Source: Rhodothermales bacterium
GTDB lineage: Bacteria > Bacteroidota > Rhodothermia > Rhodothermales > VXPQ01
NCBI GenBank assembly: GCA_965117025.1
Contig: OZ220746.1
Coordinates: forward strand, 1,159,225-1,223,224
DNA length: 64,000 nucleotides
Reading direction: 5' to 3'
Part shown: positions 4,839 to 8,552 of the stretch, one piece after another
How positions within the stretch are numbered: position 1 is the stretch's first letter
Layout: every line of letters starts with the position of its first letter
Program-made: the position numbers and the translations under genes
Notes under the pieces: model-generated
Seen by the model: the letters and a program-made list of their open reading frames with translations, nothing else
The model's database searches: none
What the model was told of the DNA's origin: nothing

Positions 4839-5009
4839 GCAGGACGTGCGGTACACTTTTTCAGACGCTGCGAGGTCGGAAACGGCCCGGGAACAGGGAT
4901 CGCCGCCCCGTACGTTGACAGAACATGCGCATGCCATGGACAACCGCCGGACTACGATGAAAGCACAGTGCACCGGCACTTCCGTCCCGGCACGACAACA
5001 CGGTACATC

Positions 5010-7514
5010 ATGAACATCTCGTACAATTGGTTACGGGAATACGCGCCCGTCCAGGAGACCCCGGAGGAACTTGCAGATATCCTCACCATGGGCGGCCTGG
5101 AAGTAGAAAGCATTGACAAGAAAGGCTTGTCGATGGATGGGGTGGTCATAGGGCGCGTGGAGCGTGTACGTCCCCATCCGAATGCCAATCGCCTCTCCTG
5201 TTGCGAGGTCGATCTGGGCGGCCCGGAGCCCGCCCGCATCGTGTGCGGCGCACCGAATGTCGCCGAGGGCCAACTTGTCCCCGTAGCCACACCGGGCGCA
5301 ACACTCATGCTGCCCGATCGGGAAGACCCTGATATACACACGCCGGTCACCATCCGAAAGACAAAACTTCGGGGCGAGCCTTCGGAAGGCATGATCTGTG
5401 CGGAAGACGAACTGGGGCTCTCCGATAACCATGACGAAATCATGGTATTGACCGGTGCGCCCGGCGCCGAACCCCGCGTTGGGCAACCTTTTTCGGAATA
5501 CCTCGAGGCTCGTGGCATCGTATACCGAGACGCCGTGCTGGACATAAGCGTCACGCCCAATCGCCCGGATGCAACCAGTCACCTCGGAGTAGCCCGCGAT
5601 GCAGCGGCACTCACAAACATCCCGCTTCGCCTCCCGGAGGCGCCCGCACCGAAACCCGGCGGCGAAGCGGCCGACCTCGTTACTATCGACATACAAGCGC
5701 CCAGGGCGTGTCCGCGGTACGTGGCGATGATCGTGCGGGACGTAACCGTCCGCGAATCTCCCGCCTGGCTTCAGGCAAAGCTGAAAGCCATCGGATTGCG
5801 GCCCCGCAACCACATCGTAGACGTCACGAACTACCTTCTCCATGATGTGGGTCAACCGCTGCACGCTTTTGATTTCGACACCATTGCAGGGCAGCATATT
5901 CGCGTACATCTCACCCGGGAGGTCACGCCCTTTATCACCCTCGACGACAAGGAGCACTCCATCCCTCCCGGCGCCATCATGATTGCAGACGCCGAACGCG
6001 ACGTAGCCATCGGCGGTGTGATGGGCGGGCAAAATTCGGAGGTCCGCGAAACCACAAGGAACGTACTCATTGAATCCGCCTTCTTCGACCCGTCGCATAT
6101 CCGCAGGGTCGCGAAGGCGCTCGGCATCCAGAGCGATGCCTCCTATCGCTTCGAGCGCGGCGTGGACCCTACCGGGCAGGTGCGCGCTGCTGCACGGGCT
6201 GCCGCCCTTATAGCAGAACTGGGCGGTGGAACCGTCGTCCCCGGCATCGTGGACGCACATCCCACGCCTTCTTCGCCAAGGCATATTACCGTACGCGCAG
6301 AGCGGATAGACAGCCTGCTTGGCGTGCACATTCCCCTTGAAACCACCGAACGCCTGTTGCAAGGCATCGGATTCGACATGGAACGACAAGGCAACGCGGA
6401 GACACCCCGGCTTCGCTGTACCGTTCCTCCTTTCCGGCCCGACATCGAGCGCGAGGTAGATGTAGTCGAGGAGATTGTACGCCTCTACGGGTATAACAAC
6501 ATACCTGAGCCGGTTCAGGCAGCCTCCCTGTCCAGTGGTACGTTGCACGAAAGCCCGGAAACACGCCTGCGGCGGGCAGCCCGCACTCTGCTTGCCTGCA
6601 CCGGACACCGGGAAATTTACACGAACAGCATGCTGCGGTCGGAAACGGCCGAACAGTTTGCGGAACTCGTGGGAAACGCACCCGATAGTGTCGTCAGAAC
6701 ACTAAACCCGATTTCCAGCGAAATGGCGGCCCTGCGTCCCAGTCTGTTGCCCGGCGCGCTGCAGGTCATTGCTTTTAATCGCAATCACGGACAGCACGCA
6801 CTGCGGTTTTTTGAATTCGGCCATGTGTTCCGGCGTACGGATGATCAGGATCGGAACGAAACCGTCGTGGAAAACTATGCGGAGTATGAATCCATCCTGC
6901 TGACGTTGTCGGGCCAGGCAACGGACACCGGCTGGAATACGTCCGCTCGGGCTTTCGATCTGTTCGATGCGAAGGGGACTGTGGAAATGCTGCTCCGGCA
7001 TGTACGGGCGCCCGATGTTCGCATGGCGCCCGTACATACTCCCGCGCCCGGTACATCCTGCGGGCTTGACATCTTTTCAGGGGATGTCCGCATTGGTAGC
7101 ATCCTCGAGATGACTCCGGACTTTTCCGGCGGGAACACCCCCGAAGAAATCGTCTATACGGCGGAATTGAATTGGACCGAAGTGGTGCGGCTGGCGGCGC
7201 CATACCTTGACAGCACGTATCAACCTGTAGAACGCCATCCCGCAGTGGACCGCGACATTGCTTTGGTCGTTGGTCTTGAAGAACCGGCGGGAGCTATATT
7301 AGAAACGATTCAACGCATCGGGGGACGCCTGCTGCAACAAGTGCGTCTCTTTGACCTCTACGAAGGCAAACATGTAGATCCGGGCAAAAAAAGTGTGGCA
7401 TTCGCCCTGCGCTTTGGCGCCAACCGCACACTCACAGATCGGGAAGTGAACAAAAAGATGGCTCGTATCGTCCACGCGCTGGAAAAAGAACACGGCGCTT
7501 CTTTGCGAGGTTAG
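5010..7514 (+). CDS. pheT: phenylalanyl-tRNA synthetase beta subunit
   Basis: MNISYNWLREY is the canonical PheT N-terminus (residue 15 of ORF 4968..7514). tRNA-binding, B3/4, B5 and C-terminal FDX-ACB-like regions are recognisable. It follows pheS. Confidence 0.93.
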   Translation: MNISYNWLREYAPVQETPEELADILTMGGLEVESIDKKGLSMDGVVIGRVERVRPHPNANRLSCCEVDLGGPEPARIVCGAPNVAEGQLVPVATPGATLMLPDREDPDIHTPVTIRKTKLRGEPSEGMICAEDELGLSDNHDEIMVLTGAPGAEPRVGQPFSEYLEARGIVYRDAVLDISVTPNRPDATSHLGVARDAAALTNIPLRLPEAPAPKPGGEAADLVTIDIQAPRACPRYVAMIVRDVTVRESPAWLQAKLKAIGLRPRNHIVDVTNYLLHDVGQPLHAFDFDTIAGQHIRVHLTREVTPFITLDDKEHSIPPGAIMIADAERDVAIGGVMGGQNSEVRETTRNVLIESAFFDPSHIRRVAKALGIQSDASYRFERGVDPTGQVRAAARAAALIAELGGGTVVPGIVDAHPTPSSPRHITVRAERIDSLLGVHIPLETTERLLQGIGFDMERQGNAETPRLRCTVPPFRPDIEREVDVVEEIVRLYGYNNIPEPVQAASLSSGTLHESPETRLRRAARTLLACTGHREIYTNSMLRSETAEQFAELVGNAPDSVVRTLNPISSEMAALRPSLLPGALQVIAFNRNHGQHALRFFEFGHVFRRTDDQDRNETVVENYAEYESILLTLSGQATDTGWNTSARAFDLFDAKGTVEMLLRHVRAPDVRMAPVHTPAPGTSCGLDIFSGDVRIGSILEMTPDFSGGNTPEEIVYTAELNWTEVVRLAAPYLDSTYQPVERHPAVDRDIALVVGLEEPAGAILETIQRIGGRLLQQVRLFDLYEGKHVDPGKKSVAFALRFGANRTLTDREVNKKMARIVHALEKEHGASLRG

Positions 7515-7778
7515 GGCCTGTTAACACTATGCAGCGGCGCTCTGCGGGGCCTATTTTTCTGCCAGGCCAGGCGCCGCGAGCGCAGTGTGGCCCGGCCACA
7601 TAAGCGAGCGGCAACGCCGCATGGCGGGAAAACAGGCCCCGCCCTTCGGGTTCCGCCGGTCACGGCGTCACTCTTCGTTGCTCGTCGCTCATTTGGAACC
7701 ACCAAACTTTACTCCTCGCGCCTTGATTGACGCCGTGCCTGACGGAACAGAGCATCGTTGCATAGTTTTAACAGGCCC
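7514..7778. mobile_element. MITE-like element: 23-bp terminal inverted repeats flanked by a TTA direct duplication (alternative: structured ncRNA)
   Basis: The left arm GGGCCTGTTAACACTATGCAGCG (7514-7536) pairs with the right arm CGTTGCATAGTTTTAACAGGCCC (7756-7778). That is 23 positions with 2 non-Watson-Crick pairs. TTA occurs immediately outside both arms (7511-7513 and 7779-7781). The interior is GC-rich with nested inverted repeats, for example CACGGCGTCA 7661-7670 with TGACGCCGTG 7729-7738. Confidence 0.5.
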
Positions 7779-7838
7779 TTAGTGAACCTCTTTGCACGTG
7801 TTGCGCATATATAAAAAGTATTCTCTTGACGCCCTGAC

Positions 7839-8201
7839 ATGTCGATGACCGAGAAGACGAGCGATTCCATGCCAGAACCCGATACCGATGCGCCGAATAC
7901 GTATCCCGGAATCGAAGAGGGTATGGGTGAACGTGCCGGAAAAGAGAAGTCGCCGCCGGAACCGGCCTCGCTGGATGCCTTGCGCCGCCGTGTCGAGGAA
8001 GCCGTCAGGCTCATTGAAGCGTTGCGCGCAACCAATGCCGCGCTCCTGAAAAAAGTGAACGAACTGGAACAACGCCCCGCCATCCACCGGGACCATGCAT
8101 TCTTCTCGCTACCCCGCAACCCGGACTCGCTAAAGGACGACTTGCGTTCCTTCATTGAAACCCTCGACGAATATATGGAACGGGAGCGTGACGATGCATA
8201 A
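7839..8201 (+). CDS. hypothetical coiled-coil protein upstream of zapA (ZapB-like by position only)
   Basis: 120-aa ORF. It has an acidic/proline-rich N-terminus followed by a heptad-like segment (LDALRRRVEEAVRLIEALRATNAALLKKVNELEQ). The start is uncertain and I recognise no family signature. Confidence 0.5.
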   Translation: MSMTEKTSDSMPEPDTDAPNTYPGIEEGMGERAGKEKSPPEPASLDALRRRVEEAVRLIEALRATNAALLKKVNELEQRPAIHRDHAFFSLPRNPDSLKDDLRSFIETLDEYMERERDDA

Positions 8202-8240: not shown

Positions 8241-8552
8241 GTGTCCCAGTCCATTCGTGTCCGCATTCTTAACCGAGACTATTCCCTGCAGGTAGACAAG
8301 CAGAACGAGCAACGCGTACGCAGCATTGCGCGATACGTCGATACGAAGGTCAGACAATTCCAGCGGGATCATCCCGATCAGCCCGACATAACGGGCCCGG
8401 TCATCGTGGCGCTGGGCATTGCCGAGGAACTCTTTGCAGAACGCGAGAAGCGGACCACCACCGAAACCGACCTGCATACGGATATCGGGCAACTCATTGC
8501 CTCTCTGGACGCCGCGCTGGCTCCCGGTGAATCGGCCCCCGCCGGGAAATAA
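8241..8552 (+). CDS. zapA: cell division protein ZapA
   Basis: 103 aa. The N-terminal pattern IRVRILNRDYSLQVDKQNEQRVRSIARYVDTKVRQF and the later IVALGIAEELF match the ZapA layout (VxIxGRxYxLxC...E..L..AA..LD). Confidence 0.75.
   Translation: MSQSIRVRILNRDYSLQVDKQNEQRVRSIARYVDTKVRQFQRDHPDQPDITGPVIVALGIAEELFAEREKRTTTETDLHTDIGQLIASLDAALAPGESAPAGK

Follow-up and report, generated by a model that had tools for sequence, protein, structure and literature searches.

Small palindromic bacterial elements that have terminal inverted repeats (TIRs) and form RNA hairpins within mRNAs, such as ERIC/IRU of enterobacteria, the Correia elements of Neisseria, RUP/BOX and MITEPsy1, insert at intergenic TA or CTAG and often abut genes. 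ERIC and Correia elements are co-transcribed, and for some of these elements effects on mRNA fate have been reported. MITEPsy1 is an IS5-type MITE (miniature inverted-repeat transposable element) with a CTAG/YTAA target (PMC3189936). The autonomous insertion sequences (ISs) of the IS427 group are 832-865 bp long, with inverted repeats of 13-21 bp, direct repeats of 2 bp and two open reading frames (ORFs) with a frameshift (PMC3281130). Here we analyse a 265-bp element located at the stop codon of a pheT-like gene in a stretch of 64,000 nucleotides (hereafter, the window) from contig OZ220746.1 of a Rhodothermales bacterium. [quoted passage not shown]

The element has the same terminal 16 nt, GGGCCTGTTAACACTA, as members of the IS427 group (IS1248, ISKpn12, ISPs1, ISLpl3 and an unnamed IS of CP071789.1), and like them has ends that start with G, the flanks in its family normally being of the form YTA…TAR, i.e. 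TA inside CTAG or YTAR; unlike these ISs, it contains no transposase, is 265 bp rather than ~810 bp long and has an unrelated interior, so that only the ends are common to the IS and the MITE. With ERIC/IRU, Correia, RUP/BOX and MITEPsy1 it shares the small palindromic format, the TIRs and the insertion preference, but there is no sequence relationship, the Y-shaped core with its fixed motifs is much more elaborate, and this core recurs between many unrelated end types, across phyla. The modular design, in which the choice of transposase lies with the ends while the interior travels as a passenger, is that of mobile insertion cassettes and other modular non-autonomous elements; the passenger here, however, is a ~200-nt non-coding structured module, not a gene. 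As in REPINs, two inverted hairpin units can fold separately or together and the element persists for long in a lineage, whereas, unlike in the REPIN/RAYT system, the ends match those of DDE ISs and the flanks carry the TA/CTAG target signature.

Terminal repeats and dispersed copies

The element is bounded as TTA-GGGCC…GGCCC-TTA (window positions 7511-7781, flanks included) and consists of the following parts.

7511-7513: left flank TTA, a putative copy of the target duplication (family-wide, only TA is consistent)
7514-7544: left terminal inverted repeat (outer stem, 5' arm)
7544-7642, plus strand: hairpin A, with lower stem 7544-7567 / 7619-7642 and a variable apical stem-loop
7642-7650, plus strand: central mini-hairpin CCCTTCGGG, 9 nt, reading cUUCGg on the plus strand and cGAAg on the minus strand
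7650-7748, minus strand: hairpin B, the mirror of hairpin A, with lower stem 7650-7673 / 7725-7748
7748-7778: right terminal inverted repeat (outer stem, 3' arm)
7779-7781: right flank TTA, putatively the other copy of the target duplication

An earlier note on this DNA had described the element as a 23-position inverted repeat with TTA outside each arm. Re-reading of the sequence gave an exact match for the coordinates, the arms (GGGCCTGTTAACACTATGCAGCG, 7514-7536, 23 nt, and CGTTGCATAGTTTTAACAGGCCC, 7756-7778) and the flanks, and the repeat is in fact longer, reaching 32 nt (7513-7544 / 7748-7779, 88% complementary according to the repeat finder). With up to three mismatches allowed, the arm pattern occurs at only these two places in the window (0 expected in shuffles), and the window carries a single copy of the element. 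Bases 7514-7534 of the left arm are kept in every MITE copy.

When the arms alone were compared with plasmid sequences, the query matched an annotated IS5-family transposase on the Enterobacter plasmid CP071789.1 (L099). This IS is 805 bp long, is flanked by CTA…TAG, has GGGCCTGTTAACACTA ends and encodes two overlapping ORFs joined at an A8 slippery run, the two halves matching NCBIfam NF033580 (IS5; E = 7e-32 and 1e-36); the partner ISs carry the Pfam domains DDE_Tnp_1 and DUF4096 and encode a DDE transposase that depends on a frameshift between its two ORFs. The ends that the MITE shares with these ISs measure 16-21 bp. The ends of this IS and of those at loci L102-L109 are identical to the first 16 bases of the window arm (16/16 nt; positions 7514-7529). 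Ten further autonomous copies of 814-823 bp have identical ends, some of them coming from ERZ26167216, the ENA sample that is also the source of L089, an orthologous pheT locus considered below, and the flanks are CTA…TAG in 10 of the 11 autonomous copies. A more distant IS from Azospirillum, with 41% protein identity, still ends with CTA followed directly by GGGCCTGTTGACATTC, and in the named relatives ISKpn12, ISPs1 and ISRel13, YTA is always followed by GG. The properties of the partner ISs match those published for the IS427 group. Homologues of the transposase at >70% identity number in the thousands and are found in Proteobacteria, Bacteroidota, Acidobacteriota, Nitrospira, Verrucomicrobia and others; the arms are thus conserved across phyla because the transposase clade is more than 70% identical and very widely distributed.

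To find copies, one genome per species was scanned with the 20-mer arm pattern GGGCCTGTTAANACTATGCA, and 88 stretches matched. Most of these matches fall in two Rhodothermales metagenome-assembled genomes (MAGs), CAZSNF01 and JANQSQ01, which contain more than 20 full copies (264-266 bp, 93-97% identical to the window copy) in both orientations at unrelated loci, together with numerous solo arms and with forms of 134 and 190-200 bp that have lost internal sequence. Identity to the consensus of the full copies ranges from 94 to 99% (96.6% for the window copy) and reaches 99.2% between the two most similar copies. Elements of equal length with identical arms but diverged interiors occur as single copies in Variovorax, Simplicispira, Giesbergeria, a Lysobacterales MAG, Marinicella and Halomonas, the Halomonas arm being the variant GGGCCTGTTGACGTTTCA. 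The Comamonadaceae copy occupies one orthologous locus in three species (two of Giesbergeria and one of Simplicispira), which points to long vertical retention of an intact copy; the respective positions are L023 5090-5353, L042 4200-4463 and L061 1870-2133, with flanks that are 91-98% identical. There are also arms-only copies of 51-55 bp (L005, L021, L060 and L067). Multiple dispersed copies are what the earlier note had expected of a MITE.

No transposase was found between paired arms or beside solo arms in the 88 loci; the 710-bp arm pair of L009 encloses only a small membrane ORF, and a 1.5-kb arm pair of L171 encloses a hydrolase-like ORF. A REP/REPIN-type element that depends on a RAYT (HUH) transposase for its movement, or else a site resembling an integron attC, would agree with the design of two inverted hairpin units and with flanks that extend the palindrome instead of forming direct repeats. 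We regard this possibility as extremely unlikely, because the element shares its ends exactly with DDE IS5-family ISs, HUH or integrase genes were not found in the loci examined, either in multiple copies or as neighbours, and the copies are dispersed in both orientations, without arrays. Nor was a RAYT or any other recurrent gene found beside the arms in the 88 loci (complete host genomes were not scanned). Readings as integron attC, Xer/dif, retron or REPIN were dropped, as there was no matching feature or neighbouring gene.

Several other features of the arm-bearing loci were recorded. At eight loci (L009, L016, L044, L053, L071, L074, L078 and L086) the arm is preceded by the 12-14-nt flank GGATAC[GT]CTGATTA (e.g. 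L009 3133-3146, L016 5207-5218 and L044 2491-2502), which in L009 encodes the C-terminus (..GYAD, then the stop) of a 566-aa Kef-like ORF and elsewhere looks non-coding. In four gammaproteobacterial genomes, the internal ATG of a solo 20-21-nt arm (CACT ATG CA) opens an in-frame ORF of 400-530 codons (L020 4360, L036 6412, L038 1733 on the minus strand and L076 4803 on the minus strand), where a deletion may have fused the arm to a gene start. CAZSNF01 contains a second abundant repeat family of ~200 bp, with CCGCATAATGAGGAATGAC and CTCGCAGCCTCCCGAAGG, which often adjoins MITE solo arms (L016 5240-5420, L054, L071, L086, L026, L044, L079 and others).

A covarying core between different ends

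On either strand the element folds into a Y-shaped structure composed of the outer stem, hairpin A, the 9-nt mini-hairpin and hairpin B. The folding energies of the two strands are −153.6 and −154.4 kcal/mol (z-scores −10.7 and −10.1), none of 200 shuffles folded as well, and across the elements analysed the z-scores range from about −10 to −19. The nested stems described in the earlier note are real according to both the repeat finder and folding, including CACGGCGTCA/TGACGCCGTG, which belongs to the stem of hairpin B. Hairpin A has the internal-loop motifs CCAGGCG (7567-7573; the family consensus is CAAGGCG) and GCAACGC (7611-7617), and hairpin B, read on the minus strand, has CAAGGCG…GCAACGA at 7725-7675; in the mini-hairpin, only the middle base of the loop differs across the family (T, G or A). 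The right half of the element mirrors the left, with ~74% reverse complementarity (positions 31-129 vs. the other half). ORFs inside the element do not exceed 65 aa and overlap the stems.

Copies from different phyla align end to end, and the blocks CAAGGCG, GCAACGCC, CCCTTCGGG, GGCGTTGC and CGCCTTG are kept between phyla, whereas the stems differ. Among ten diverse copies, compensatory changes were observed at 62 of the 90 pairs, and 93% of the cells were paired, compared to 72% in shuffles (0/500) and ~40% with slid partners. The alternatives of MITE and non-coding RNA (ncRNA), as posed in the earlier note, therefore form a false dichotomy: both parts hold, given that the copies are dispersed and the interior is conserved and covarying.

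A metagenome scan for the core only, with the motif CAACGC-N-CCCTNCGGG-N-GCGTTG, matched at least 120 loci, in samples of soil, sediment, freshwater and seawater; the counts that follow are those among the matches listed. Clear terminal repeats were present in 66 elements, mostly 260-277 bp long. The ends were of the GGGCCTGTT type in 24 of the 66, and other elements had unrelated ends, e.g. GTGCACCGTCTCGCATATAATGGTGA, GTACCCTGTCAAGGTGATA, GGGGGCGTTCTCAATTAGTTT, GAACCCATCTCATAAATAGGGA and GTGTCCTGTCCCCGAAATAAGC; crude clustering of the ends yielded 24 clusters, which we read as at least 15 real end classes. Most ends begin with G, and CTAG is found at one or both junctions in 38 of the 66 elements. 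Although they lie outside the search pattern, CAAGGCG and CGCCTTG were found in 69 of 96 cores, with a spacing that does not vary. In hairpins A and B, respectively, the lower stem was represented by 64 and 62 distinct sequences, and its pairing within an element extended over 13.7 and 12.9 of 16 positions, respectively, vs. 8.3±1.7 between elements. The stems covary freely, whereas the motifs CAAGGCG, GCAACGC and CCCTNCGGG, together with their spacing, are fixed. One and the same module occurs in many phyla, enclosed by IS427-like ends of at least 15 different types.

Under this pattern of conservation, it is improbable that the element is an ordinary decaying MITE, with a functionless interior whose structure is a relic of an inverted duplication. 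The reverse-complementary halves are compatible with such an origin, as are the age of the window copy and the decay of its relatives' copies (see below). Duplication, however, explains the pairing of left with right but not the hairpin that each half forms on its own, with lineage-specific yet complementary stems; the motifs and spacing fixed over at least 15 end classes and several phyla, and the opposite wobble bias of the two hairpins (see below), are likewise left unexplained.

Among plasmid sequences, no IS was found whose ends belong to the GTGCACCGTCTCGCATATAATGGTGA class. When the window element and the Variovorax copy were compared with Rfam, under gathering and E-value thresholds, there was no meaningful match; in the window, only a tRNA (3-76) passes, and the best sub-threshold matches of the element are at chance level. 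No description of an IS427-type MITE with a conserved core was found in the searchable literature or Rfam (ISfinder was outside the scope), and a literature search for the arm sequence returned only an unrelated primer.

The pheT junction and the target site

The genes around the element are listed below.

4968-7514, plus strand: pheT-like ORF, with a putative start codon (from the ORF list; the orthologues in L089-L098 have PheT Pfam domains and the same end position)
7839-8201, plus strand: conserved 110-120-aa ORF of unknown function, downstream of the element
8241-8552: zapA, following the 110-120-aa ORF

The pheT stop codon, TAG (7512-7514), is built from the TA of the flank and the first G of the element, as the earlier note had it and as ORF 4968-7514 bears out. 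The same note held the insertion to be translationally silent, in agreement with the protein sequences: PheT ends in ..EHGASLRG here and in ..LRS in relatives, at equal length, and is unchanged because the first G of the element restores TAG.

Orthologous pheT-ORF-zapA loci in related uncultured Bacteroidota were reached through homologues of the downstream 120-aa ORF, and their junctions were compared by alignment between two conserved anchors. The following states of the pheT junction were observed.

Window: full element
L096: first 25 nt of the left arm only, joined to the downstream flank
L090 and L092: TTA, the right arm's terminal 8 nt (ACAGGCCC), TTA and GTGAACC
L098: TTA, then GGGCCTG (7 nt)
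L095: TTA, then GGG
L089, the most distant: GAG CTA ATGAACC, no trace

The comparison with empty sites that the earlier note had proposed thus yields an allelic series at the pheT junction, from the full element through a solo arm and remnants to the empty site. Since relatives keep remnants at the same junction, the insertion is older than the split of several lineages; it is old, with the copies of relatives eroded by independent deletions, and such deletions would also account for the solo arms seen genome-wide. Relatives without the element nevertheless retain the sequence that separates it here from the downstream ORF (7782-7838).

These observations bear directly on the possibility that the element is a locus-specific conserved ncRNA gene (a pheT 3' untranslated region (UTR) or a zapA-locus leader), as the earlier note had also suggested. 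Strong structure and covariation, as well as a UNCG-type central loop on the plus strand, are what such a gene would display, but the element is absent or reduced to a remnant at this locus in close relatives, dozens of copies are found at unrelated loci in both orientations, and there is no Rfam match. The first two of these findings refute a locus-specific gene, and this reading is very improbable.

The window sequence minus the element and 3 nt is colinear with L089. Two other comparisons of occupied with 'empty' sites gave +1 and +2 nt (L012 vs. window ~105-111 and L019 vs. L086), but these cannot be used to size the duplication because the 'empty' sites look like deletion remnants (GCCC and AACAG). 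In the first of these pairs, the related MAG L012 has a full 266-bp copy at 6621-6886, between the tRNA (3-76) and the next ORF, where the window (~105-111) has none, with at most a 4-nt GCCC trace; AATT-TGCCC-CGAATC in the window corresponds to AATTACCCCA, the element and CGAATC in L012.

The 35 paired copies have YYA as their left and TRR as their right flank, an extension of the palindrome rather than a direct repeat, and only two of the 35, the window copy and L088, have TTA/TTA flanks. The 3-bp TTA duplication proposed in the earlier note is compatible with this copy (+3 nt vs. L089) but is not the signature of the family. In the Proteobacteria and metagenome copies, the commonest flanks are CTA/TAG, followed by CTA/TAA and TTA/TAG; metagenome MITE copies with GGGCCTGTTAACACTA-type ends most often have CTA/TAG; the window copy itself is atypical. 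As in the parent ISs, the family signature appears to be a TA duplicated inside YTAR (or CTAG), and for the window copy either a duplicated TTA or TA with one extra T fits. Two other family rules were considered and rejected, namely, a 3-bp TNA duplication, since flanks such as TTA…TAA are inverted and not direct, and a 4-bp CTAG duplication (with ends GGCC…GGCC), since the flanks are inverted and the G and C are invariant.

CTAG does not occur in the 64-kb window (0 observed vs. ~79 expected, both strands) and is also absent from ~26 kb of the related genomes (L089-L098). In the two Rhodothermales MAGs, the observed/expected ratio of CTAG is 0.16, and MITE junctions make up 13 of the 32 CTAGs. 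Many CA and TG flank variants among the Rhodothermales copies coincide with the scarcity of CTAG, so the flanks are probably degenerate because CTAG is scarce in this clade; junction CTAGs may have been purged after insertion. The absence of CTAG is suggestive of a CTAG-specific restriction system or a repair bias in the clade.

Elsewhere in the window, an unrelated 105-bp palindromic element was identified at 2099-2203, just after ORF 39-2084, whose 32-nt arms are GGACCTTGGGACGCGTCTTCTCTCAAAACATA and, at 81%, its reverse complement; this too may be a MITE-like repeat.

Strand bias of the hairpins and possible roles of the core

To compare wobble pairs with the opposite mismatch, stem alignments were picked on Watson-Crick matches only, and isolated mismatches were counted on the strand that carries CCCTNCGGG. 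Hairpin A showed 39 G·T vs. 19 A·C mismatches, and hairpin B showed 14 vs. 41, i.e. the two hairpins have opposite biases (Fisher p = 1.2e-5); the Rhodothermales copies follow the same wobble trend in hairpin A. For the whole structure, with all classes combined, G·U and A·C are symmetric (62 vs. 63), and the signal emerges only when the hairpins are separated. The opposite biases imply that selection maintains the folding of each hairpin on one strand, the one whose 5'→3' direction leads inward from the nearer end.

The junction TAG serves as the stop of a long ORF (at least 290 codons) in 8 of 22 Rhodothermales copies, so that read-through into the element would be the normal situation. Because the end begins with G, insertion into a ..YTAG stop rebuilds TAG. 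We propose that the element is mobilised in trans by a transposase of the IS427 type and that, whichever flanking gene is read into the element, its transcript would run into an RNA hairpin that folds correctly and lies directly behind the stop codon. This first hairpin may act as an orientation-independent 3'-end stabiliser, terminator or insulator, a role that would render stop-codon insertions harmless and long-lived. A role of the module as an orientation-independent RNA 3'-end, terminator or insulator is the one we favour, albeit tentatively. The complete scenario, in which an ancient multi-phylum MITE superfamily has a module that followed, or was repeatedly swapped onto, at least 15 IS427-type ends and was kept as such an RNA device, making CTAG/TAG stops safe landing sites, is possible but rather doubtful.

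The main rival of the RNA role, which we hold to be possible and yet unlikely, is a purely selfish MITE without an RNA role, in which the hairpins act on DNA during transposition, by folding on the non-transferred (5'-ended) strand or as a cruciform that joins the ends or binds the transposase or a host factor. The two-fold symmetry is expected for something that acts at both transposon ends, both strands fold equally well, the core stays tied to IS427-type ends over at least 15 end classes, and there is no general gene-orientation bias. The wobble asymmetry marks the strand with its 5' end at the nearer terminus, which is the non-transferred strand, and the minus-strand centre of the element reads cGNAg, a stable DNA triloop. 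However, the autonomous ISs have neither the hairpins nor the motifs, so the transposase does not need them; arms-only copies of 51-55 bp exist; and DDE transposases of the IS5 family are not known to use internal hairpins.

Several observations weigh against the RNA proposal and its MITE framework. The wobble asymmetry agrees as well with the non-transferred DNA strand at the two ends as with RNA from transcription that enters from either flank, and the central loop is as consistent with a UNCG loop in RNA as with a GNA loop in DNA. The element has no classical intrinsic terminator (there is no U-tract), with no T-run after either hairpin and 0 terminator-like sites in 7350-7950, and it contains no sigma-70 promoter. 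Neither the window nor ~600 kb from related loci (L001-L088) yielded a cognate transposase by tblastn, and the size of the duplication varies between occupied/empty comparisons (+1, +2 and +3 nt). The bias in gene orientation is limited to Rhodothermales (~10:1-3), whereas the metagenome set gives 11 vs. 14. Even within Rhodothermales, a ratio of 12:1-2 by codon-based gene calls becomes 8:3:3 by a cruder ORF test; as evidence for an RNA role, orientation bias was thus weakened by the ORF test and lost in the metagenome set, and it is not relied on here.

Taken by itself, the locus holds an old and silent MITE insertion of an ordinary kind, the consequences of which for annotation are a chimeric pheT stop codon and a 265-bp structured 3' UTR. 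MITE interiors are usually disposable, whereas here a ~200-nt interior keeps its motifs, geometry and pairing across phyla and many transposase specificities, with a mark of selection that depends on the strand. If functional, the core would be either a portable, orientation-independent RNA part or a new cis-acting cofactor of IS5-family transposition, and it would help explain the long persistence of MITEs on stop codons. Should the RNA proposal be true, this would be a selfish element that carries its own 'harm-reduction' RNA device.

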